From positions 704,001 to 768,000 of the forward strand of contig CBDBKE010000004.1 of assembly GCA_965206645.1 (NCBI GenBank): DNA of 64,000 nt, written 5' to 3'. This DNA comes from Terriglobia bacterium (GTDB lineage: Bacteria > Acidobacteriota > Terriglobia > JAJPHL01 > JAPKYU01). Of the stretch, positions 2,624-63,483 are shown piece by piece (the stretch's first letter is position 1; every line of letters begins with the position of its first letter). The notes beneath the pieces are model-generated. The model was not told where the DNA came from. It searched no databases and saw only the letters and a program-made list of their open reading frames with translations. The position numbers and the translations under genes were made by a program.

Positions 2624-5878
<3,255 letters not shown>

Positions 5879-5928: not shown

Positions 5929-5992
5929 CGTCAGGGCACGGCTTCAGCCGTGCCATTAAATTGGTATCCTCTCAGGGGCTTTAGCCCCTGAG
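5929..5992. repeat. REP doublet (left of RAYT)
   Basis: CGTCAGGGCACGGC-TTCA-GCCGTGCC (5929-5954) followed by hairpin CTCAGGGGC-TTTA-GCCCCTGAG (5971-5992). Confidence 0.85.
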
Positions 5993-6446
5993 GTGGTTCG
6001 TCTAACTGGAACTGCCTTGATGCAGAAGACCACGGGTAGTCATCCGTGAGGGAAACCAACCTCTTCTTTACCGGGTTCTCCTCCACATAGCGCAGGTGCC
6101 CCTCGTAGTCGCCAGCATCGCGAATCCGGTGATCGCTGAACCTGCGTTGCCAGACAGGAAAACGAAGCTTAAGTTCCTCTCCCATTCTGCGAGCCGAACC
6201 GCCCTTGATGTATTGTACGGCACGCTCCAGAGTTGTATCCGCAGCTGGAGTGAGGAGGAGATGAAAGTGCTCTGGCATCACAACGAAGGCGTGGAGATAA
6301 TAGGCCGCATGATCACGATAATGGAGCAAGGCTTCGATGAGGATCTGGCAAGCGGTCGCCTTTGTAAACAAAGGCCGACTCTCCCAGGTACGTGAGGTTA
6401 CGAAGTACGTTCCTGGTATTTTCCCGTGCCGCTTGGGAACCGCCAT
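5931..6446 (-). mobile_element. REP-associated tyrosine (HUH/Y1) transposase, RAYT / IS200-like TnpA
   Basis: TYFVTSRT, AFVVMPEHFHLL (HUH), YVEENPVK (catalytic Tyr plus NP), YPWSS; flanked by inverted REPs. Start MAVPKR at 6446. Confidence 0.9.
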
Positions 6447-6449
6447 GCC

Positions 6450-6513
6450 CTCAGCGGCTGAAGCCGCCCTCCTTTTCCATCTTGTTCGGCACGGCTGAAG
6501 CCGTGCCCTGACG
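6450..6513. repeat. REP doublet (right of RAYT)
   Basis: GCGGC-TGAA-GCCGC hairpin, then GGCACGGCTGAAGCCGTGCCCTGACG (6488-6513), the exact reverse complement of 5929-5954. Confidence 0.85.
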
Positions 6514-6972
6514 AAACCACCTTTTGCTCCGTCGCGCCGACCTCCTATCCGAGGTCTCATTCAACAATTCAAAGCCTTCGGTCTGAAGGAGCGCACATAC
6601 AAGGTTCTCAAGAACGCCTCGAATAAAGAGGTCTGACAACCTATTCATGGAAAATTCCAATCCGTTGATCCTAAACTCTTCAAATTGCAATGTCTCGAGG
6701 TACACCTTCCCGCCATTTGACCGATGTTCGTTGAAGACCTTGCGAATGTTCTTATGTGCCGGTGTAGTGCTATTCAAGTAATCACTCACTCTTTGACGCA
6801 GGTTTCCGGTCTGTCCAACTCGAAACCGAGCCTTCCCTTCGTGTGCAGAAAAAGCCCGCCGGTAAACGGCTGGTCCCCTGGAAAGCCCAAGATGATTCAA
6901 CGGATACACATATTCCAACCTTTTGGCCGTTTTCGAGGGCAGCCATGTGAGTTCAATGACGATTGCGGGCAT
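6451..6972 (-). CDS. Hypothetical protein, GIY-YIG nuclease-like
   Basis: GPAVYR...FRVGQTGNLRQRVSDY and a later LE resemble the GIY..YIG.T.NL..R motif. Visibly AT-richer than its flanks; overlaps the carA stop. Confidence 0.5.
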   Translation of the reverse strand: MPAIVIELTWLPSKTAKRLEYVYPLNHLGLSRGPAVYRRAFSAHEGKARFRVGQTGNLRQRVSDYLNSTTPAHKNIRKVFNEHRSNGGKVYLETLQFEEFRINGLEFSMNRLSDLFIRGVLENLVCALLQTEGFELLNETSDRRSARRSKRWFRQGTASAVPNKMEKEGGFSR

Positions 6973-15509: not shown

Positions 15510-15537
15510 AGTAAACACTAGCCCGTTAGTGGCGACC
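15510..15537 (+). other. 28-bp putative recombination site, L form (copy A)
   Basis: AGTAAACACTA-GCCCGT-TAGTGGCGACC followed by TATCTGGCA; matches five other copies in the window. Confidence 0.6.
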
Positions 15538-50785: not shown

Positions 50786-52119
50786 TGACCAGACCGATTT
50801 TTTGTACCAACCGTAGTGAGAGTTTACATCGCAGCCTGGGGCTGTGAAACTGGTTTCAGTGGCAGGGGAGGGCTATAGGCCCCCGGCGCCGGGGGCCTAT
50901 AGCCGAGCGCCGAGTGCGGCCGCACCGTGTTGTATTGCACCCTCCACTGTTCAATCACCACCTGTGCCTCCTTCAACGAGTAGAAGATCTCTCCATTCAG
51001 GCATTCGTCCCGCAGCTTCCCATTGAAACTCTCGCAGTACCCGTTCTCCCAGGGACTGCCCGGTTCGATGTACAGTGTCCCGGTCCCTAGATTTGCCAAC
51101 CACTGGCGCAGTTGTTTGGCGATGAACTCGGGACCATTGTCGGATCGAATCTGTTCCGGTATCCCTCGCCACAACATCACGTCCGACAACGCCTCAATGA
51201 TTTGTTGGCTGCCCATCCTCCGCTCCACCCGGATCTGTTCCGGTATCCCTCGCCACAACATCACGTCCGACAACGCCTCAATGATTTGTTGGCTGCCCAT
51301 CCTCCGCTCCACCCGGATCGCCAGGCATTCCCGCGTGTACTCATCCAGCAAGGTCAGCAGCCGCAGCGTTCTCCCCTCGTGCGTTCTGGCACTCATGAAG
51401 TCGTAGCTCCACACGTGGTTCGGTCGCTCCGGCCTCAGTCGTACACAGGAACCGTCGTTCAGCCACAGCCGTCCTCGCGGCCTTTGTTTTTGCGGCACTT
51501 TCAGCCCTTCCCGCCGCCAAATCCGCTGCACCCGGTCCTTGCCCACTTCCCAGCCCGCACTCCGCAGCAACGCTGTGATCCTCCGGTAGCCATATCGCCC
51601 GTACTTCGCTCCCAGGGCAATGATCGCTCGGGTCAGAGCATCCTCGTCCACCCGATGAATCGGCTCGTATCGTTGTGTCCCTCGCCATTGCCCCAGCAGC
51701 CGGCAGGCATGCCGTTCCGACAACCCGTGTTGCTCCCACGCACGCTCCACCGCACAACGCCGCCGCTCAGGGCTCAGAAGTTTCCCTGTGCCACATCCCG
51801 CAGTACCTGCTTCTCCAGAGAAAGCTCCGCTACCAACCGCTTCAGCCGCGTGTTTTCCTTCTCCAACTCCTTTAGCCGTTTTGCCTGCACCACCTTCAGC
51901 CCGCCGTATTCCTTCCGCCACCGGTAGTAGGTTTGGGTGTGGATTCCAGCTTCTTTGCAGGCTTGGGGCGCAGTCTTCCCGTTCCCCATCTGCACTTCTA
52001 TCTGCCGTAGCACCGCTACAATCTGCTCCGGCTTGTAACTCCTTGTCGGCATGACCTCACTTCCTCCTCAAGTGGATTCTCTCTCTTTCCACTTGGTACA
52101 AAAAGTGCCGGTCAGGTCA
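50786..52119 (-). mobile_element. IS3-family insertion sequence
   Basis: IRs TGACCAGACCG..TTTTTGTACCAA and TTGGTACAAAAA..CGGTCAGGTCA. orfA 52052-51774; orfB to 50824 (YGYRR, WSYDF, RSDNGPEF, SPWENGYCESFN); GGGAAAC frameshift motif. Confidence 0.93.
51149..51316. repeat. Exact 84-bp tandem duplication inside IS3 orfB
   Basis: Encodes RVERRMGSQQIIEALSDVMLWRGIPEQI twice. Confidence 0.9.
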
Positions 52120-52144
52120 CTGTTCATCTGCAAATCCCTGCAGC

Positions 52145-54067: not shown

Positions 54068-54314
54068 GCAGGCTGATCTGGAATCGCCCTAATTCGTCTT
54101 CATTGTACCAGAGGCGCCAGGTTGGTAGCAGACGCTGGTCTATCGGGCGCAAAGACTACAAGACCGCCCAGTTCGGCGAAAGCAGGCACCGTGGAGACCA
54201 AACCTTCCAAGCCTGAACAGGCAGGGATGCCTGTCCCCAAGATTAGGCAGTGCGCCAGTTTCCGGTATGCCGACTATTCGCCCAACTGAAGCCGGGCCAA
54301 CTGAAGCCGGGATT

Positions 54315-54342
54315 GATAAACGCTAGCCCGTTAGTAGGGACT
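54315..54342 (+). other. 28-bp putative recombination site, L form (copy B)
   Basis: GATAAACGCTA-GCCCGT-TAGTAGGGACT followed by TATCCGGCA. Confidence 0.65.
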
Positions 54343-54412
54343 TATCCGGCATTCCTGGACATGCGACCCGGCAGGCTGTAGCCTTGGTCAATCGCTTTCC
54401 AGGAGGGCAGCC

Positions 54413-57351
54413 ATGCGCAGGTCCTTGATTCGTAGCGTGGGGCCGGGAATGGCGCTGCTAGCGCTCGGGCTGCTAGCCATCGCGGTGCTGGAGCTGGGTT
54501 CCGACCCTAGCCTTGCCGACAAGCCATACTTCCCAGCAAGAACTCCCGCGGCCAACAAGCCGCAGGTTGTGGAGAACTACGGCAAGCTGCCGCTGAGCTT
54601 TGAAGCCAATCAGGGCCAGACCGACAGCTGGGTGGACTTCCTGTCGCGGGGAAGTGGCTACACGTTGTTCTTGACCCCTACTGAGGCCGTGCTTGCTTTG
54701 CGCAAACCCACTGCGTCTGAGGTTGGCGCTGCGTCTGAGGTTAGCAAGGTTGAGGTGGCAAGGTTGAGAGCAACTCGGACACGGAGGAAGCGGTGCTGCG
54801 CATGAAGTTGGTTGGCGCCAATCCATCGTCTCGGGTATCAGGGCTTGAGGAGCTTCCCGGCAAGAGCAACTACTTCCTGGGAAACGACCCAAAGAAATGG
54901 CGCACCAACGTCCCACATTACGCCAAGATTCAGTACAAGGACGTCTACCCGGGCGTGGACTTGGTTTATTACGGCAACCAGCGGCAGCTGGAGTACGACC
55001 TGATTGTCACCCCCGGAGCCAATCCTGAGGCTATCCAGCTCGCCTTTGAGGGTGAAGATGACCTGGAAATAGATGCCCAAGGCGACCTGGTGCTCGACAG
55101 CGACGGTGGTCAAGTCCGCCTGCACAAGCCGTTTGTCTATCAGCAGGTAGACGGTGTTCGGCAGGAAATCTCCGGGGCCTACGTGCTCAACGGCGGCCGC
55201 CAGGTCAGCTTCGAGGTGGCCGCGCATGATGTCGGCAAGCCTCTCATTATTGATCCTGTGCTGAGCTACTCCACCTACCTCGGCGGCAGTGCCAGCGGCA
55301 CCAACGAGACTGGCTTCGGCATCGCCGTGGACGTCTCCGGTAACGCTTACGTGACAGGGCAGACAGCTTCGACTGACTTCCCGACGGCGAGTCCCCTCCA
55401 GGCCGCTCACGGCGGCGGCTCTGACGACCTCTTCGTAACCAAGCTCAACGCCGCAGGTTCCGCCCTCCTCTACTCCACCTACCTCGGCGGCAGTGGCCGT
55501 GACGAAGGCCTCAGCATCGCGGTGGACGCCGCCGGCAACGCCTATGTGACAGGCTTTACCAGGTCGACCAACTTCCCCACTGCCAGCCCCTTCCAGGCCG
55601 CTCATAGCGGTGGCGTCAATGATGTCTTCGTGACAAAGCTAAATCCCGACGGCTCTGCTCTCGTCTATTCCACCTACCTCGGCGGCACTTCAAGTGAGGA
55701 AGGCACCGGCATAGCGGTAGACGTGACCGGCAACGCCTACGTGATAGGCTCGACGAGATCGGCGAACTTCCCCACGGCGAATCCCTTTCAGGCCACAATT
55801 GGCAGCACCTTCGATAACTTCGTAACGAAGCTGAACGCTGCCGGCTCCGCCCTGGTCTACTCCACCTACCTGGGCGGCACCGACTTTGAAACGGACGCCG
55901 CCATCACCGTAGACTCCTCCGGTAACGCCTACGTGACGGGCACCACCATGTCGACCGACTTCCCCACGAGCTTCGGAGCTTTTGACACAACCTTAGGCAC
56001 AGATGGCAGTGGTAATGGTGGCATCGCCGACGCTTTCGTAGCGAAGTTCAATGCCGCCGGCTCCGCTCTCGTTTACTCCACATACCTTGGGGGCAGCAGC
56101 CTAGACGAAGGCCTCGACATTGCCGTGGACGCCGCCGGCAACGCCTATGTGACAGGCTCTACCAGGTCGACCAACTTCCCCACTGCCAGCCCCTTCCAAG
56201 TAGTTTTTAACGGCCCCATCGACGCATTCGTGACGAAGTTGAATGTTGCCGGCTCCGCCCTGGTCTACTCCACCTACTTGGAAGGTGCTGGGTCTCGCAC
56301 CCGCATCGCAGTAGACGCCTCCGGCAACGCCTACGTGACGGGCATTACCCCCGGGGGCCTCCCCACGGCGAATCCCTTTCAGGCCACTCACGCCGGCTTC
56401 GGCGACGCCTTCGTAATGAAGTTCAATGCTGCCGGCTCCGATCTGATCTACTTGAGCTACCTCGGCGGCAGCAACCAAGATTCAGGCCGTGGCATCGCTG
56501 TGGACTCCCTGGGCAACGCGTACGTGACAGGTACCACCGATTCGACCGACTTCCCGACGGCGAGTCCCCTCCAGGCAGCTCACGGCGGCGGCCAGTTCGA
56601 CGCATTCGTGGCCAAGATCACCATCCCCCCAACCCTGCCAACCAACTCCGTGGTCAACGGCGCCAGCTTCCGGCCGGCCGCGGAGGCGAATTCGGTCATC
56701 GCTCCGGGCGCGATAGTGGCCATTTTCGGGACGGACCTGGCGGGCGGTATCGAGGTAGCAACGGACGTACCACTTCCCACCACGCTGGGAGATACCAGCG
56801 TGACCTTCGATGATATTGCGGCCCCGCTGTTTTTCGTGTCGCCTACGCAGATCAATGCGCAGGTCCCGTTTGAGCTGATGACCGGGACGGGGATGGTCAT
56901 GGTGCAGGTGAGGCGGGGCAGTGAAACGAGCGAGGCGCAGCCGATCGGGATCGCGGCCGTATCGCCGGGCATTTTTACGCTGAACGAGCAGGGCACCGGC
57001 GCCGGGGCAATCCTTCACGCGGAAGACTTCCAGCCGGTGAACGACAGCGCCCCGGCACAGCCGGGCGAGTTCATCCTCATCTTTTGCACTGGGCTCGGTT
57101 CGGTACAGCCCGAAGTCCCATCCGGCGATGTTGCCCCCAGTACGGAGCCTCTGGCGCGAACCGTTACCCTACCAATGGTGAACATCGCTGGCATAGCCGC
57201 CGACGTGGCCTTCTCCGGCCTGGCCCCAGGGTTTGTGGGGCTCTACCAGGTGAACGCGCAGGTGCCGGCGGGTGTCCCGGCGGGTACGCAGGAGGTGGAA
57301 ATCCTCGTTAACAACGTGCCGGGTAACACCGTCACCATCGCCGTGCAGTAG
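54413..57351 (+). CDS. Secreted SBBP beta-propeller repeat protein with TIGR03437 C-terminus (frameshift near 54780)
   Basis: YGKLPLSFEANQGQTD N-domain (54413-54805) joins the 54793 frame; repeats YSTYLGG...IAVD..GNAYVTG.T.S..FPT; GFVGLYQVNAQVP. Confidence 0.85.
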
Positions 57352-57411
57352 CCTGCTCCGCCTCGGTCCAAGTCTCTAAGTACAAGACGCTTGCCTCAGA
57401 TTCAGCGGATA

Positions 57412-57439
57412 GGTCCCCACTAGTCGGTTAGCGTCTTCC
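57412..57439 (-). other. 28-bp putative recombination site, R form (copy D)
   Basis: Plus strand GGTCCCCACTA-GTCGGT-TAGCGTCTTCC, preceded by TTGCCTCAGATTCAGCGGATA, which is shared with copy F. Confidence 0.65.
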
Positions 57440-57465
57440 CGCTCTCTGTTCGTTCTCAAGAAACG

Positions 57466-57495
57466 AAAAGCCGCACCCCTTTGGGGATGCGGCTT
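57466..57495 (-). terminator. Rho-independent terminator of the aldo/keto reductase
   Basis: Hairpin AAGCCGCA-CCCC-TTT-GGGG-A-TGCGGCTT with an A-run that gives a U-tail on the minus strand. Confidence 0.65.
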
Positions 57496-57558
57496 CATGA
57501 TCTGACTCAACTTGAAAGCGATCCAGGCAAACAAGCCCGCGCAGGTCCGCAGCTGCCG

Positions 57559-58524
57559 CTAGTCGCCCTGATAGGCGGGGCGCGGCGGCCGGTAGTCCGC
57601 GGTCTTGATATTACGCTTCCAGGTTTCCAGGTGCGGGCCGGCGATCGGCTCGGCGCGCTTGCGCAGCGCGCTCATCTGGGTATCGCCGATGGGCTTGAAC
57701 CGCTGAGCAAAGCGCACGTCGTCTTCGATCTGGCCAACCGTTGTCGCGCCCAAAGTCACGCAGTGGATCGGCAGGCTCAGCACGTAGGCCAGACAGTCGT
57801 TCAGGCTCATGGTCTGCAACAGCTGGGCATTCGCCGTGCTCTTCATGGCCTGGATGCCCAAGCCTTGCTTGATCGCCTCGGGCAGGACTTTGGTCTCGAA
57901 GCTGAGGTAGGAGGGGTCGGCCGGGTGGAGCGGCATCAAGATCGTGTCGAAGTTCTTGTAACTCCGCAGCATCTCCAGGTGCGCAGCGGGGTCGTTGTGG
58001 CCGGTGAATCCGATAAAGCGGCACTTGCCGGCCTTCTTCGCCGCCTCGAACGCCTCGATGGCGCCGCCCGGAGCGAAGATCTTCTGCAAGTCTTCGTCGC
58101 TTTCGACCGAGTGAATCTGCCAGAGATCCACGTAGTCGGTCTTGAGCCGCTTGAGCGAGAGGTGCAGCTCTTCCTCGGCTTCTTTGCGCGTGCGCTTGTT
58201 TGACTTCGTGGTGATGAAGATTTCTTTGCGGAACGGCGGCATGACCGCCCCATAAACTTCTTCCGAGCGGCCATCCCAATAGCCGTGCGCGTTATCGAAG
58301 TAGTTGATGCCCAACTCGTAGGCTCGCAGAGTGACTTGCTTGGCCTCCTCGAACGAGATCAGCGGGAAACGTCCCCCGGCCTGGCCGACGATGGTGAGCT
58401 TTTCGCCGGTTTTGCCAAAGACCCTGGTCGGAATGTCGCCCGCTTCGAGCTTGCTCGCCCGAGCCGAAGTCCCGAGGACGGCGACGCCAGCCAGCGCGCT
58501 ACCCACAAAAGTTCTGCGATTCAT
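57559..58524 (-). CDS. Aldo/keto reductase with Tat signal
   Basis: MNRRTFVG; GINYFDNAHGY, FITTK, SLKRLKTDYVDLWQIH, RFIGFTGH. Confidence 0.9.
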   Translation of the reverse strand: MNRRTFVGSALAGVAVLGTSARASKLEAGDIPTRVFGKTGEKLTIVGQAGGRFPLISFEEAKQVTLRAYELGINYFDNAHGYWDGRSEEVYGAVMPPFRKEIFITTKSNKRTRKEAEEELHLSLKRLKTDYVDLWQIHSVESDEDLQKIFAPGGAIEAFEAAKKAGKCRFIGFTGHNDPAAHLEMLRSYKNFDTILMPLHPADPSYLSFETKVLPEAIKQGLGIQAMKSTANAQLLQTMSLNDCLAYVLSLPIHCVTLGATTVGQIEDDVRFAQRFKPIGDTQMSALRKRAEPIAGPHLETWKRNIKTADYRPPRPAYQGD

Positions 58525-58658
58525 AAATCCTCCCGTGAACAAGACTGCATGGGGACCATGCTGCCGCATCTGGCAACGAATTGATTCGTCTGTTTGTCAG
58601 GCGCCATAGCGGCTTCAAGTGTATCAGCCGGAGACAGTTGGCCAAGTGTCGCTGAACA

Positions 58659-58686
58659 AGTCCCCACTAATCGGTTAGCGTTTACT
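58659..58686 (-). other. 28-bp putative recombination site, R form (copy E)
   Basis: Plus strand AGTCCCCACTA-ATCGGT-TAGCGTTTACT. Confidence 0.65.
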
Positions 58687-58721
58687 TATCCACGTCGCAC
58701 CGCCCAGGCAGGCAGAACATT

Positions 58722-58749
58722 GGTAAACGCTAGCCCGTTAGTGTGGACC
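58722..58749 (+). other. 28-bp putative recombination site, L form (copy C)
   Basis: GGTAAACGCTA-GCCCGT-TAGTGTGGACC followed by TATCCGGCA. Confidence 0.65.
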
Positions 58750-58780
58750 TATCCGGCAACGCTGGTGACAAGGCGGCAGG

Positions 58781-59266
58781 TCACTTCGGCGGGTTCTCTT
58801 CAACGATGTCCGGCTTGAGCTTGCCGATGATCGTGAGCAGCTCCTCCTTCTCCTTGGCGGGCACCTTGAATTTGTCCAGCGTATCCACCAGGTGGTCCAC
58901 AACGACGTTGAACTCTTTCTCTGTGATGCCCAGCCCTGCGTGAACGGTCTTGGCATCTCGGCTGATGACCTTGCACGGCCCACCCGTGACGTTGCACACA
59001 AGATTGATGTTCTTCTGGATGAACGACTTCCGGGTGTCCGTACCCATCCCCTTGAAAAAAGGTCCGACCTTGGGATCGGTAAAGAGCTTCTCGGCGAAGT
59101 CGTTCACCACCGCTGAGATCGCTCCGTAGCCGCCGAGTCTCTCGTAGAGCGACTTCGTGTGGCTCTCAGCTTTTGTCAAAACCGGTACCGCGAGCAGCAA
59201 GAAAAGCGCCGCCACCGTCACGCCGAAAAAAGCAGAGTTCCTTGATTGTTCTCGAATGGTGTGCAT
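58781..59266 (-). CDS. Group I truncated hemoglobin with signal peptide
   Basis: SLYERLGG..AI.AVV.DF, VTGGPC, VHAGLGITEKEF; hydrophobic leader; AAGGAG RBS. Confidence 0.88.
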   Translation of the reverse strand: MHTIREQSRNSAFFGVTVAALFLLLAVPVLTKAESHTKSLYERLGGYGAISAVVNDFAEKLFTDPKVGPFFKGMGTDTRKSFIQKNINLVCNVTGGPCKVISRDAKTVHAGLGITEKEFNVVVDHLVDTLDKFKVPAKEKEELLTIIGKLKPDIVEENPPK

Positions 59267-59357
59267 GTCTTTCTCCTTGTCCAAGATTTCCTTTTTGGCC
59301 GTTTCTGATTTTCCGTTTCCTGCTGGCACGATTGTACGCTATCTACTTCGGTTCTTG

Positions 59358-60239
59358 CTACTGAAGCGGGTAGGCGCTCAGCACAAAATCCTTGCCTGGA
59401 AAATGGCAGCCAAAGCAGAGCGGGACGCCGTTACCAGCCGCCACCGGATTGGCACCAGAGGTAGTGCTGACGACCTCGTACCAAAACCAACCCTTGCCCC
59501 TGTCACTCTCGGCTTGCGTTTTTACCATGACCGCCCAGCCCTGAAGCTTGCCATTCCCGTCGTACATTTCCTTCACAGAGGCGGAGCCAACGGGGTGGGA
59601 GGTGCTACCCGCCCTCAGCGACGCATCGAGCTTGGGGTCCAAGAACACCCGGACCGGCCAGCCAAACTTCGTGTGCGGGCCACGCGTGGGGTGCGCGGCT
59701 GATTCCTTAGCGAATTGCTTGTATGAGCCGTCCCGCAAGTACTTGAACAGACGGTCTTTGTCGGTCGGAATCAGGCTATCCACACTGGCGCCCTCCGCGG
59801 TGGGCTCCAGGGCGGTAGCCATTGCACCGGACATGGCGCCTGCCATCTTCTTGAATTCCTCCGAGCGGCTGTCCATGGCCCGACCGCTCTTTGCCCCCTT
59901 GGCTGCTCGGAGCACCGGGTAGTATTGTGTGAAGACAAAATCCTCCGCAGCGCTGGCTGCGTGACAGGCGTTGCAAGCCCCCGCGGGAAACTTTTCTGCG
60001 GTGTCGGCCAGCGGATAGGAGTGACCAAAGCTGAAGTAGGCCCAGTTGCCGGGCTCATCCGGGAAGCGTTTGGAGTCCTTGATGGTGGCCTCCAATCCGA
60101 TGAACTCGCCCATGAAATAGCCCTTGCGCTGGTGGCCGCCTTCGAGCCCACACTGACCAACTCCTTGACCAGAATGGTGCCCTGGGGGAATTTCCCTGTC
60201 TTTTTGTAAGCTGCAAAATCGTCGGGATGGATGTATACA
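59358..60239 (-). pseudogene. Cytochrome P460-family di-heme protein, 3' part
   Basis: YIHPDDF...GTILVKELVSVG (1-bp shift near 60127) GYFMGEFIGLEATIKDSKRF..EPGNWAYF...CNACH; second domain SVKEMY...WAVMVK...GWFWYE...CFGCH. Confidence 0.85.
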
Positions 60240-60522
60240 CCAGGATGCGGTATCGCCCGAGCGGCCGGCCGACCATGGGCGAGAAGCCTCCCTCTTGGGA
60301 GCCATGCTACGCCCCACCCCCAGGCAAGTCAATGCGGCGACGGGGTAGGCTATACGAAGGGGCAAAGTGCTACACCCCCGCCACCCCGAGGAGCGCCACC
60401 CGTCACGGGCGCGTGCGCTCTCGGGACCGGAGACAGGAGCTTCCAAAAGTGCCCCCCCTGGCGCGCCTCCAGGTGTACCCCTGGACTCTAAGGCAAAGGA
60501 TCAAATATACTTTAAGTCCCCC

Positions 60523-60620
60523 ATGGGACGATTGAAGGCGATTTCCCTGTTCAGCGGCTGCGGAGGAAGTGACCTTGCACTCGAACGCGCGGGTTTCAAG
60601 ATCGTTTGGTCAAATGATAT
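60523..60620 (+). pseudogene. 5' fragment of a C5 DNA cytosine methyltransferase
   Basis: MGRLKAISLFSGCGGSDLALERAGFKIVWSNDI (motif I FxGxGG) ends exactly at the IS1380 IR. Confidence 0.8.
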
Positions 60621-60833
60621 CCGGAATTTCCTTTTGGGCCTTCCGGCGATTAAAAATATACACGCATCTGCGTCCCAGCGAGTACAATGTTTTCTCCGAG
60701 AGGACCATCGGCTCCGAGCGTCCCTTTCGGGGTCCCCTAAAACCGTCCAATCAGCATCCAAACCCAGCTTTTTCAGACAACTCTCCATACCTGGGGGATA
60801 GCGGCATCGTTTTCTTGTGTGCCGTAGCCCAGG

Positions 60834-62162
60834 CTATCCCGACGGGAGTGCCCATCCATCGATCCGCCCCAGCATGCTGGCAAACAGCCGTCGGGTCAAA
60901 TGGCCCTCGGCCAGCAGGAGCCAGTAGTACCGTGAGTGTTTTAGGAGCCGTCCTCCGGTTTTCACCAGCCGCTGCTGGAGGCTCGTCAAGGACCACTTCT
61001 CGATTCTCTGTGGCAGCACTAGCCGTCGCCATAGGTTGCCCAGGTTGTAGGCGATGATCGTCAGCCAAAGCCGTACCTCGTTAGATCGGAACTTGTGGCA
61101 ACTGAGCCGCGTCATCTTCACCGCCTGCTTGCCTTCCTTGATCCACTGTTCTGCGGTGCCGCGCTTGTTATAGAATCGCACCACCGCCCGATTCGGCAGC
61201 GTCAGATTCGTTACAATGAACCCCACTCGCGGGAACAACTCCCCGGAATGATGCTCTACTTTCGCCACCACCCTTCGAGCCGTCTTCCAACTGGCTGCCT
61301 GGTACAAGAACCCCTTGTACTCGACCAGCGGTTTCTTGGTGGGCCTTCCCACGGGGCGTTTCAGTAGCTCTTCGATGTCTCGCTGCAGAATATCGTTGGC
61401 CGGGATGCGAATTGCGTACTTCACACCCCGTTCCTCCAATGCCTCGTACACCTCCGGCTTGGCAAAGGCCGCGTCCGCCCGAAACGCAATCTCTTTTCCC
61501 ATTCTTTCCTGGCGCTCAATCTCGGGTAACAGGAGTTTCTCCCAACCCTCGGCACTGTGCACGTTGCCCGGACGCAGCTGGGCCGCCAGACAGTTGCCGT
61601 CTCGATTGAACAAAAGCAGCGGGTGATAGCAAGTGGACTCGAAGTGCCCGTTGTAGGCGCTCTGTTCCTGCTCCCCGTAGACCGGAATCTCGGTTGAGTC
61701 CATATCCAGCACCGCTCGGTAGTGCCACTGGAAGGCTTCGACCTTTCCGATCAGTTCCCGGTTGATCCGGGCTAACCCGACGAAGTTCTCCACCTTCGCC
61801 AGCATCTCCGTCTCGAAAGTTTGCAACCTGGAGGTCAGCGCCGCGCCTCGTTCCCAAGTCTTCTCTGAACCAATCAGCTGAAAGGTCGGGTCTTGCGACA
61901 GCCGCTCGGCATCATTTACATCCTCGTATCCAGCTAGGCGACTGTAGACCGACTGCCGCAGCAAGTCCGCGAAAGAAAACCGAGCATTGTTTGCCCGCGA
62001 ATCGGTCAAGTGCTCGTCAATGAGTTCGCTGAATCCCAGACGCTCATCCAACTCCCGGACCAGAATCAGTCCACCATTGGAAGTCACCCGTGATCCCTGA
62101 AACCCGACTCGCAGAAATCGGTTGAACGACAGCTGAAATCCCTGTTTTCCGCTCTCACCCAT
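60834..62162 (-). CDS. IS1380-family DDE transposase
   Basis: VTSNGGL, GYEDVNDA..L..DP, LDMDST, YHPLL, LRPGNVHSA, RADAAF, FYNKRGTAEQWIKEGK. Confidence 0.95.
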   Translation of the reverse strand: MGESGKQGFQLSFNRFLRVGFQGSRVTSNGGLILVRELDERLGFSELIDEHLTDSRANNARFSFADLLRQSVYSRLAGYEDVNDAERLSQDPTFQLIGSEKTWERGAALTSRLQTFETEMLAKVENFVGLARINRELIGKVEAFQWHYRAVLDMDSTEIPVYGEQEQSAYNGHFESTCYHPLLLFNRDGNCLAAQLRPGNVHSAEGWEKLLLPEIERQERMGKEIAFRADAAFAKPEVYEALEERGVKYAIRIPANDILQRDIEELLKRPVGRPTKKPLVEYKGFLYQAASWKTARRVVAKVEHHSGELFPRVGFIVTNLTLPNRAVVRFYNKRGTAEQWIKEGKQAVKMTRLSCHKFRSNEVRLWLTIIAYNLGNLWRRLVLPQRIEKWSLTSLQQRLVKTGGRLLKHSRYYWLLLAEGHLTRRLFASMLGRIDGWALPSG

Positions 62163-62268
62163 TGAGTTTACGCCTCCGAACGCTCCGATTGATGCTGCAA
62201 CCAGTATCAATATTGACGTTGGAGGTTAGCTGAAGGTTGCCGCTGCGTTTTCAAAAAGGAAATCCGGG

Positions 62269-62530
62269 ATACATTGTGGAAATCGGGGAAAGCAGCTTCA
62301 GGTGGATTCATGTCGTTCGGGGTAATCGGCGTACCGATATAGACCCACTCCCGGTAGCCTGTGGGTCGCATGAGTTTACCGTCCGCAGTGAAGCTGGGTT
62401 TCGACTTCCCACCATGCGAACTGGGCGGGGTCGCCGCAAATGTCGTCACAAACAGGGACACGACCATAACCAACGCTACGATGCTGGCGAAGGTGCGAGT
62501 GATACGACGGGACCTAATCGAACGACTCAT
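62269..62530 (-). pseudogene. Cytochrome P460-family protein, 5' part
   Basis: Signal peptide, then GKLMRPTGYREWVYIGTPITPNDMN...AAFPDFHNV, which joins YIHP across the insertion. Confidence 0.85.
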
Positions 62531-62772
62531 TCCGTGCCTCCTCTAACCAGGACTTCCGACCTGAGCTTCCTCTTCGCCCGAAGCCTACGGTAGCTGCCCT
62601 GCCGCATCAAGCTCGAATGCGCCAGCCTCTTTTGGAGGCGCCAGGGCCGTTTGGGGCCATTCAGCGGATTTGTCCGGTCCGTTTTCCCGCCTCCAACCTG
62701 CCTCGCTGCCAATGCTTTCTCAGGCGGCAGTAATTCTCTGAAACGGCAAAAGTTGCCTCAGATTCGGCAGAT

Positions 62773-62800
62773 AGGTCCCACTAGTCGGTTAGCGTTTACC
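62773..62800 (-). other. 28-bp putative recombination site, R form (copy F)
   Basis: Plus strand AGGTCCCACTA-GTCGGT-TAGCGTTTACC, preceded by TTGCCTCAGATTCGGCAGAT. Confidence 0.65.
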
Positions 62801-62889
62801 TATGCTGCCACGCAGCCCACATGGCCGTAAAACGCCCTTGCCGGAAACTGACCCACTACTCAAAATTAGGAAAGCGGTACCATGAGAGC

Positions 62890-63483
62890 ATGGCGCTCCC
62901 AGAGCGGGTGCGTGTGAAGCTGATGTCGGACGCAGCCGAGGACATCAGCATGACACGCGTGATGCAGCGCGACTTTCCCATGGCGGAGCTGCTGGAGGCG
63001 GTGGTGGCTGTGGGCGGCAAGAATCCCGAGCGCCTGCACCAAATCCTGCGGGCAGGCAGCATGGTGCTGGGCCAGTATCGCTACCGCTGGGAGCCACTAG
63101 AGGCTGACGCCACAGACCTGGCGCCGTTGCTGGCCCGCTTCCCCGACCCTGAGCCGGACCGGCCCTTTCAGGTTGAACGATGCGTCTATGCTACCGTCCA
63201 CGCAGGCGTAGAAACGATCGAACTGCGGCGCGAGCAGGTGGCCCGCCGCCGCTGGCTCCAGAAGAGAAGCTTTTGGGAAACACTCATGGAAGTGGCGGCA
63301 GCGCGCGCGCCGCGCTACCAGTCCTACTCCTACCGCAACCGCGCCGACGTCTACGCGTTCGAGCCCACGCAGGAGGATGTCGAGCGCCTGCGCGGAGCAG
63401 CGACCTTGCTGCACGCGCCCCGCACTGAAGAGCGCATCCGCATCTTGCCTCTAGAGAAGGTGACGCTGCTGGTCAACCGATAA
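62890..63483 (+). CDS. Hypothetical protein
   Basis: Long ORF with host-like codon usage (MALPERVRVKLMSDAAE...); no motif recognised. Confidence 0.7.
   Translation: MALPERVRVKLMSDAAEDISMTRVMQRDFPMAELLEAVVAVGGKNPERLHQILRAGSMVLGQYRYRWEPLEADATDLAPLLARFPDPEPDRPFQVERCVYATVHAGVETIELRREQVARRRWLQKRSFWETLMEVAAARAPRYQSYSYRNRADVYAFEPTQEDVERLRGAATLLHAPRTEERIRILPLEKVTLLVNR

Follow-up and report, generated by a model that had tools for sequence, protein, structure and literature searches.

Mobile insertion cassettes (MICs) are described as elements that are related to insertion sequences (ISs), lack a transposase of their own and can be activated by a cognate transposase (PMC3129680). Examples include MIC231 of the Bacillus cereus group and the Tn3-derived MICs of Xanthomonas (PMC3129680, PMC4337579). 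Accessory genes are also found between inverted sites of 11+6+11 bp in the pdif modules of Acinetobacter plasmids, which occur in varied contexts (PMC6449649). Here we discuss an array of accessory genes and 28-bp sites with the 11+6+11 layout in a 64,000-nucleotide stretch of DNA from a Terriglobia bacterium (GCA_965206645.1, contig CBDBKE010000004.1, positions 704,001 to 768,000). This stretch will be called the window; it is C4:704001-768000 of genome G000, which has 4.4 Mb in 4 contigs. On the best reading, the array is a composite cargo transposon that lacks a transposase and belongs to a family spread across the class, and the 28-bp sites form an inner layer, specific to the genus, of its ends and its internal joints.

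Ends that combine outer and inner transposase-binding repeats are known from the inverted repeat/direct repeat (IR/DR) ends of Tc1-like elements and from the multi-site ends of Mu and Tn7, and elements with ends of these types produce 2-bp or 5-bp duplications. The bacterial interspersed mosaic elements (BIMEs) and repetitive extragenic palindromes (REPs) of enterobacteria are mosaics of two types of palindromic unit in alternating orientation with fixed linker motifs, and they are strictly extragenic.

The whole array (54247-62859) is one 8.6-kb element with terminal inverted repeats of ~42 bp, (G)GTAGTGGGTCAGTTTCCGG..., which we call the O-box. The element is flanked by a target duplication of 8-9 bp (CAAGATTAG on the left, CAAAATTAG on the right). 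A preliminary description of this DNA had proposed a search for empty sites in relatives, and for the O-box-bounded element an intact target was found in the sister species G003. The uninterrupted sequence ...TGTCCCCAAAATTAGGAAAGC... lies there next to the right-hand genes (L038, ~5800-5830) and runs from the left flank through a single copy of the duplication directly into the right flank. In G003 a histidine-kinase gene and the right-hand genes are 2.4 kb apart with the array absent, and the DNA between them differs and includes an IS. The window array moved as a whole by transposition. The duplication was also examined at 27 adjacent convergent O-box pairs (14 in G000 and 13 from 10 other genomes), 2 of them based on weak O-box matches. 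The 8-bp duplication is identical at 7 or 8 of its 8 bases in 17 of the 27 pairs, and shifted-register controls reached a maximum of 6 of 8. The duplication and the GTAG are separated by one extra base, which is usually G at one end and C at the other. The preliminary description had proposed pdif-type exchange of modules, which these outer boundaries (terminal repeats, target duplication and an empty site in G003) speak against, and a Xer/pdif mechanism is not supported.

The O-box is the outermost piece of the ends. The 28-bp sites, referred to below as palindromic units (PUs), lie ~57 bp inward of it and consist of an arm A, a 6-bp core and an arm B. Two classes are distinguished by the core read from arm A to arm B, t1 with GCCCGT and t2 with ACCGAC. 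The O-box is common to both classes, with subtype Oa followed by t1 and subtype Ob followed by t2. G000 has 49 O-box copies at up to 3 mismatches and 82 nhmmer matches, and O-boxes are also found without any 28-bp site. The features of the array, and the one PU of the window outside it, are the following.

54238-54246, no strand: left copy of the target-site duplication, CAAGATTAG; in the 8-bp model, 54238-54245 plus the terminal G
54247-54289, + strand: left terminal inverted repeat (O-box, Oa subtype), a degenerate copy, GCAGTGCGCCAGTTTCCGG... (nhmmer C4:758248-758289, E 2.8e-6)
54315-54342, + strand: PU of type t1, core GCCCGT, followed by an inner extension to ~54400
54413-57351, + strand: cargo 1, a DUF7948 + SBBP beta-propeller gene, split by a frameshift near 54800
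57412-57439, - strand: internal PU of type t2 (core ACCGAC); its A arm is a hybrid, GGAAGACGCTA, and an adjacent O-box is lacking
57559-58569, - strand: cargo 2, aldo/keto reductase, with an intrinsic-terminator-like hairpin at 57467-57496
58659-58749, no strand: back-to-back doublet of a t2 unit (58659-58686, -), a 35-bp spacer and a t1 unit (58722-58749, +), the A arms facing
58781-60239, - strand: cargo 3, globin (58781-59329) and the 3' part of a cytochrome P460 gene
60240-62268, - strand: secondary insertion with an IS1380-type DDE transposase (60834-62210) that splits the P460 gene
62269-62530, - strand: 5' part of the cytochrome P460 gene; a 107-aa open reading frame (ORF), 62207-62530, overlaps the end of the insertion
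62773-62800, - strand: PU of type t2, arm B with a one-base deletion
62818-62859, - strand: right terminal inverted repeat (O-box, Ob subtype), GTAGTGGGTCAGTTTCCGG... (nhmmer C4:766859-766818, E 1.6e-9)
62861-62869, no strand: right copy of the target-site duplication, CAAAATTAG
15510-15537, + strand: solitary t1 unit between convergent genes, without an O-box

The order of sites and genes is the one given by the preliminary description, which had missed the insertion that splits the P460 gene and the frameshift in the SBBP gene. This insertion is 2.03 kb long and absent in G001, contigs from 3 of 4 public sequencing runs span the joint without it (60234->62269), and more than 40 related IS1380-type copies occur in G000; it is no part of the cassette system. 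The DUF7948/SBBP gene is read in two overlapping frames (54413-54805 and 54793-57351, +), which reflects a frameshift or a sequencing error, and its paralogue in G001 (L076) is split at a similar place. Paralogues of this SBBP cargo are present in other such cassettes. The cargo inside site pairs is diverse and encodes no recombinase. The earlier statement that the window encodes none was not quite right, as it holds the IS1380-type DDE transposase, an IS3-like element at 50786-52120 (its family inferred from its ends) and a Y1 transposase gene at 5931-6560; none of them is tied to the sites.

The doublet at 58659/58722 has orthologous copies in G001 and G003. The reductase module is found at another locus and in another PU context in G001 than in G000 and G003, and this, together with the absence of the array from G003, agrees with the earlier view that the sites lie at the edges of accessory modules. 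No clean target was found for the left neighbour of the reductase module in G003, and the shell copy in G001 is rearranged on its left side, so that internal turnover at one insertion is not demonstrable there.

The PUs were defined with the pattern GGTAAACGCTA-N6-TAGTGGGGACC at up to 3 mismatches. In the window the pattern finds exactly the six sites that had been reported, 15510 (+), 54315 (+), 57412 (-), 58659 (-), 58722 (+) and 62773 (-), with 1-3 mismatches each, and none of 100 dinucleotide-preserving shuffles yielded even one match. The cores are also as reported, GCCCGT in all three copies on the + strand and, in the three on the - strand, GTCGGT or ATCGGT as read on the + strand, that is, ACCGAC or ACCGAT from arm A to arm B. 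What had been called L sites are t1 units, and the R sites are t2 units on the opposite strand; the difference between L and R cores at 2 of 6 positions holds in all species. The 11+6+11 layout is shared by 46 copies in G000 at up to 3 mismatches versus 0 for the reversed control, and a looser cut gives 62 PUs, 34 of type t1 and 28 of type t2. The two cores are discrete and conserved across three species. The sites had been described as intergenic, and this extends to the genome: all six in the window lie between listed ORFs and none of the 62 lies inside a long reading frame with high G+C at third codon positions. No Rfam family was found for the sites or their flanks, either in the whole window at the gathering threshold or in 54100-63000 at E up to 1.

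According to anchored column conservation and alignments, conserved sequence reaches ~55 bp beyond arm A on the outer side and ~60 bp beyond arm B on the inner side, and the flanks on each side of the PU come in class-specific versions, t1 with the Oa-type and t2 with the Ob-type. At 22 of the 62 PUs in G000 a good O-box ends within 60 bp outside arm A. An 18-base motif, TAGTGGG-N4-TNTCCGG (scanned as TAGTGGGNNNNTNTCCGG), is present at both termini of the element and in arm B and its extension in five PUs. The scan gives 7 matches versus 1.39 expected, a number reached in 0 of 100 shuffles, and all 7 point inward (read by hand from the coordinates). A complete end has an outer and an inner copy of the motif in direct orientation, and arm A is a weaker, inverted copy of it.

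Such ends suggest a trans-acting DDE-type transposase with an 8-bp staggered cut that would recognise TAGTGGG-N4-TNTCCGG. The enzyme would meet the motif once per terminus and a second time ~75 bp inward, where arm B with its extension repeats it in direct orientation, giving ends of the outer-site/inner-site kind. Type t1 would belong to one end type (Oa) and type t2 to the other (Ob), and the internal PUs at 57412 and 58659/58722 would be inner ends left where once-separate cassettes were joined, or alternative ends. The PU may in addition be a place where ends and cargo are re-joined during evolution, because it is the only sequence common to the conserved end and the variable cargo. On balance, we lean towards the reading that the 28-bp sites are the inner, sub-terminal PU layer of the ends of a non-autonomous, cargo-carrying, transposase-less transposon family of the MIC or miniature inverted-repeat transposable element (MITE) type. 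The PU itself may serve as an inner transposase site, as a crossover site, or as both.

Neighbouring PUs within 6 kb pair t1 with t2 in all 8 convergent pairs (one of which is a duplicated locus) and in all 5 divergent pairs, as expected of units that are specific for the left and the right end. The strictly intergenic position and the imperfect palindromes, in two types with alternating orientation and fixed linkers that form a mosaic, would also suit REP/BIME-like extragenic palindromes that are spread by a Y1 transposase (REP-associated tyrosine transposase, RAYT) and accumulate in variable regions, and G000 does have two Y1_Tnp genes. However, each of these genes is flanked by a palindrome of its own that is different from the PU, the PUs stand at fixed distances inside terminal repeats flanked by target-site duplications (TSDs), and covariation between the arms is absent (825 paired cells versus a shuffle mean of 826.8 +/- 3.5). 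We consider this origin highly improbable. The Y1 gene of the window encodes a RAYT-like protein of 209 aa on the - strand and has a perfect 26-nt inverted pair at 5929-5954 and 6488-6513. Its repeats are built on the palindrome GGCACGGCT..AGCCGTGCC in a REP/RAYT-type arrangement that is unrelated to the 28-bp sites. The second gene, at C4:115872, has another palindrome.

The absence of compensatory changes in the arms argues for a double-stranded protein-binding site over a hairpin. This and the intergenic position would be compatible with operators or terminators, that is, with cis-regulatory sites at which a host DNA-binding protein controls the cassette genes. The PUs are, however, located at both the 5' and the 3' ends of genes in either orientation, with modules running t1->t2 in 2 of 7 cases and t2->t1 in 5 of 7 (hand count), and no promoter-like or terminator-like site coincides with them. 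The preliminary description had named conserved promoters, occupied regardless of gene content, as the pattern of a regulatory site; the opposite was seen, and synteny breaks at the PUs. A regulatory role is in our estimation a very remote prospect.

Two sets of findings weigh against the reading of the PUs as a sub-terminal layer of transposon ends, one concerning the unit and the other the enzyme. The duplications and the empty site bear on the O-box and not on the PU itself. A match to the ends of a known IS or MITE with target duplications had been named earlier as an observation that would refute the exchange model; terminal repeats with a target duplication were found at the outer O-box boundaries, with the same restriction as to the PU. 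No good O-box adjoins the remaining 40 of the 62 PUs, so that many of the units are not part of the end architecture. In other genera O-box cassettes transpose with no PU present, which shows that the basic reaction can do without it. A simple inner binding site also leaves three features unaccounted for, namely arm A, the spacing of 6 bp and the existence of two sharply distinct, conserved cores. Additionally, the flank subtypes on the two sides of the core are reassorted. In a set of 66 distinct t1 copies taken from three species, the A-arm variant tracks the outer flank (A2 is A in 22 of 23 copies with the Oa linker and G in all 28 class-b flanks) and the B-arm variant tracks the inner extension (B11 is T in 10 of 11 type-c extensions), yet all four combinations of outer and inner flank and all four A2/B11 combinations are seen, which fits a recombination site at least as well. 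Finally, ~6 truncated PUs break exactly at the edge of the core and keep the core and one arm, which suits a recombination site equally well or better. In G003 (L053) B'-ACGGG is kept and followed by unrelated DNA, in G001 the reductase gene is joined directly to GTCGGT-A', at C3:194358 A-ACCGA is kept before unrelated DNA, and at L082, C2:709247 and L043 the core and B are kept with A lost.

These last points, with the 11+6+11 geometry, the two discrete cores, the 13 of 13 pairs of unlike type and the reductase module in different PU contexts, speak for a rival explanation in which the PUs are crossover sites of a trans-acting site-specific recombinase and the transposing O-box shell forms an outer layer of its own. 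Crossover would join t1 with t1 and t2 with t2, so that cargo bounded by t1 and t2 could be swapped between shells with neither deletion nor inversion, as a natural heterospecific cassette exchange. On the other hand, the half-sites are few against ~120 full sites, short-homology recombination or recurrent mutation could give the reassortment, and most cross-genome breakpoints are at the ends of the whole unit (~-60 and +62) and not in the core. No recombinase is consistently found near the PUs. Tyrosine recombinases lie within 5 kb of 6 of the 62 PUs versus 4.4 expected (P=0.28), which is no enrichment, and three integrases next to PUs are unrelated, with 25-29% identity to one another. No recombination junction or circle was seen in the contigs of the 4 public runs, which around the repeats are too short to reveal excision or circles. 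In one X4 contig, 57404 and 62777 are connected through 14 other letters, but at 90% likeness it may come from a paralogous cassette and nothing is concluded from it; peaks of read depth at the repeat units reflect copy number only. Overall, crossover at the PUs is possible but rather doubtful. The fuller scheme of gene capture in two layers, with O-box shells as vehicles and PUs with two incompatible cores as the recombinase crossover sites that load, chain and swap cargo, is in our judgement unlikely. If true, it would be a natural equivalent of recombinase-mediated cassette exchange, with an integron-like function and no integron parts.

The pdif-like model of the preliminary description, with exchange between L and R sites by a tyrosine recombinase of the Xer type through which modules would be excised or inserted, predicts symmetric products. 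Beyond the layout, the inverted L and R sites at module edges and the accessory nature of the modules, it can draw on one A-core-A' site (G000 C4:2196791). This is a single locus that is orthologous in G001 (L080:894), and no clear B'-core-B site was found, whereas standard sites number 51 in G000 and 57 among the loci of relatives. The predicted products are nearly absent, and with the mismatch between L and R cores, the terminal repeats and target duplication at the outer boundaries and the lack of an integrase association the model is very unlikely.

As for the enzyme, neither the 27 pairs examined nor the 4 kb inward of another 25 O-boxes contained a transposase with O-box ends, and this too counts against a transposon family. 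The only transposases inside cassettes are multi-copy ISs that were inserted secondarily. Among the candidates that were rejected, an IS256-like element found within one O-box pair proved to be a multi-copy IS of 1.44 kb whose ends differ, the IS1380-like copies near O-boxes belong to the family of more than 40 copies, and the IS21-like and IS3-like elements that lie inside cassettes or close to them were inserted secondarily or differ in their ends. IS66 was rejected as the source because it is missing from the carrier genomes G001 and G048. The IS1595 family was rejected as well, its own ends (GGGAATTAyATA...) being unlike the O-box, though the duplication length fits. The IS6 family has the same 8-bp duplication length as the O-box elements, and the first ~17 bases of the O-box can be aligned by eye with one IS6-type end of G003 (L138) at 12 matches if a 2-base gap is allowed, but the IS6-family elements of these genomes have different terminal repeats of their own. 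PF13610 (IS6-type) has 23 matches in G000 and 0 in G001.

Genes of the IS1595 family are present in 169 of the 301 genomes of the class survey versus 1 of 14 control genomes; without the positive unpublished genomes G105, G293, G096 and G253 the count is 165 of 297. PF12762 is found in 31 of 43 O-box-rich genomes (the unpublished G077 and G293 among them) versus 138 of 258 others by a hand tally, a weak co-occurrence. Each of the seven IS1595 copies in G000 (at C2:895344, C3:700133 and elsewhere) has a DNA sequence of its own, and no clear flanking repeats emerged when five copies from G001, G003, G048 and G068 were scanned for inverted repeats. The IS1595-family copies could be old or domesticated.

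The class survey covered 301 sampled genomes of 131 genera at up to 2 mismatches. The O-box was found in 113 of the genomes (110 of 298 without the positive unpublished genomes G077, G105 and G293) and in 61 of the genera, with 0-2 matches per genome for a reversed-pattern control. The loci that were analysed individually all come from genomes other than the unpublished ones. MITEs of ~107 bp with O-box ends and 8-9-bp duplications occur in dozens of copies in G068 and G046. The PU has 9-46 copies per genome in all 4 genomes of the genus and 1-5 copies in 9 of the 297 others. Since the PU is abundant only in this genus and the O-box is found throughout the class, the genus has added the PU to a class-wide vehicle and amplified it.

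The cargo consists of ordinary genes, and single-gene cassettes with these ends occur across the class. In G000 the O-box or PU pairs enclose a Ser/Thr kinase, TPR proteins, a cupin, a hydrolase, an S4-domain protein and SBBP paralogues. Elsewhere in the class the cargo includes SpoIIE phosphatases, hydrolases, an ankyrin protein, an FtsX/MacB permease, a histidine kinase with a GGDEF regulator, and cupins.

Several further arrangements of these sequences were observed. Outward-facing (back-to-back) O-box pairs in G000 are always 10 bp apart. They were seen on C2 at 436240/436251, 478017/478028, 496606/496617, 522197/522208 and 527718/527729, where they link consecutive elements across ~90 kb, and at C3:302479/302491, C4:68633/68644 and C4:2128457/2128469. 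Several of them have the same spacer, CCTGGCGGGC, as if an insertion had occurred beside an existing end or the doublet itself had been copied. In G003 (L046, C1:229400-235500, ~2850-2925), compared with G000 C4:127019, synteny stops right after a tRNA/tmRNA-like 3' end, ...GGGTTCGACTCCCGCCGCCTCCACCA, which resembles a classical integration hotspot, and an O-box-like sequence lies just downstream. A third arrangement of the PU has arm B and its extension behind a different left arm and core (CTGTGTCAGTC GGAGGC) in four copies, G000 C2:795531 (-) and C4:128831 (-), L046:3769 and L060:873. In a genome of another family (L107, G017:C3, ~3040-3113) two tandem PU-like sites with the cores ACGGCG and GGCGAC stand 18 bp apart, each framed by CCGGATA and TATCCGG, which makes the palindrome ~42 bp long. 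Another t2 unit (L064, G003:C2:2524500-2530600, ~2843-2939) is apparently broken by a ~90-bp insertion right after the TAG of arm B.

If the reading as a transposon family is true, one transposase-less family moves ordinary chromosomal genes singly, and does so in over a third of the genomes sampled from a major class of soil bacteria. The genes so moved would include kinases, hydrolases, secreted beta-propeller proteins and haem proteins, and this would be a concrete route to the paralogue expansion and accessory-gene turnover that are typical of acidobacteria. The genus-specific PUs form a second layer exactly where the conserved ends meet the variable cargo. The question that this poses is which enzyme moves the O-box elements.

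Among the papers searched, 12-13-base strings of the O-box occur in no relevant context, the 7 matches all being unrelated primers, and nothing specific was found on acidobacterial non-autonomous elements with terminal inverted repeats. One report mentions Acidobacteriae only for phage MITEs, and its supplementary MITE catalogue might list the ~107-bp MITE (PMC11602168). These ~107-bp elements are the point of likeness to MITEs; the window element differs from a MITE in that it is 8.6 kb long and carries genes, and its PUs are not terminal.

The array resembles pdif modules in its geometry and in the inverted sites that flank accessory genes. Unlike the array, pdif modules have sites that resemble the chromosomal dif, use XerC/XerD and lack terminal repeats and target duplications, and the symmetric exchange products are missing here. 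According to the preliminary description, the PU arms are unlike the XerD box, TTATGTTAAAT. With the Tc1-like, Mu and Tn7 ends the O-box elements share a recognition motif at the terminus that is repeated directly some tens of bases inward at both ends, but the inner site here is one half of a palindrome with a 6-bp core in two classes. The PUs differ from BIMEs and REPs in having neither a RAYT association nor hairpin covariation and in being embedded in TSD-flanked transposon ends. They differ from the co-oriented attC sites of integrons, which stand beside intI/attI, in that they alternate in orientation and have no integrase association. The outer layer agrees with MICs, in which passenger genes likewise lie between terminal inverted repeats and a target duplication and a transposase is lacking, the element presumably being moved in trans. 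The differences from described MICs are that no cognate autonomous IS with O-box ends was found (the ends of the IS256-, IS1595- and IS6-like elements differ and IS66 is missing in two carriers), that the O-box family spans at least 61 genera, and that in this genus the ends have an additional PU and several cargo segments are chained in one shell. We conclude that the O-box elements represent a new family or a variant of mobile insertion cassettes.

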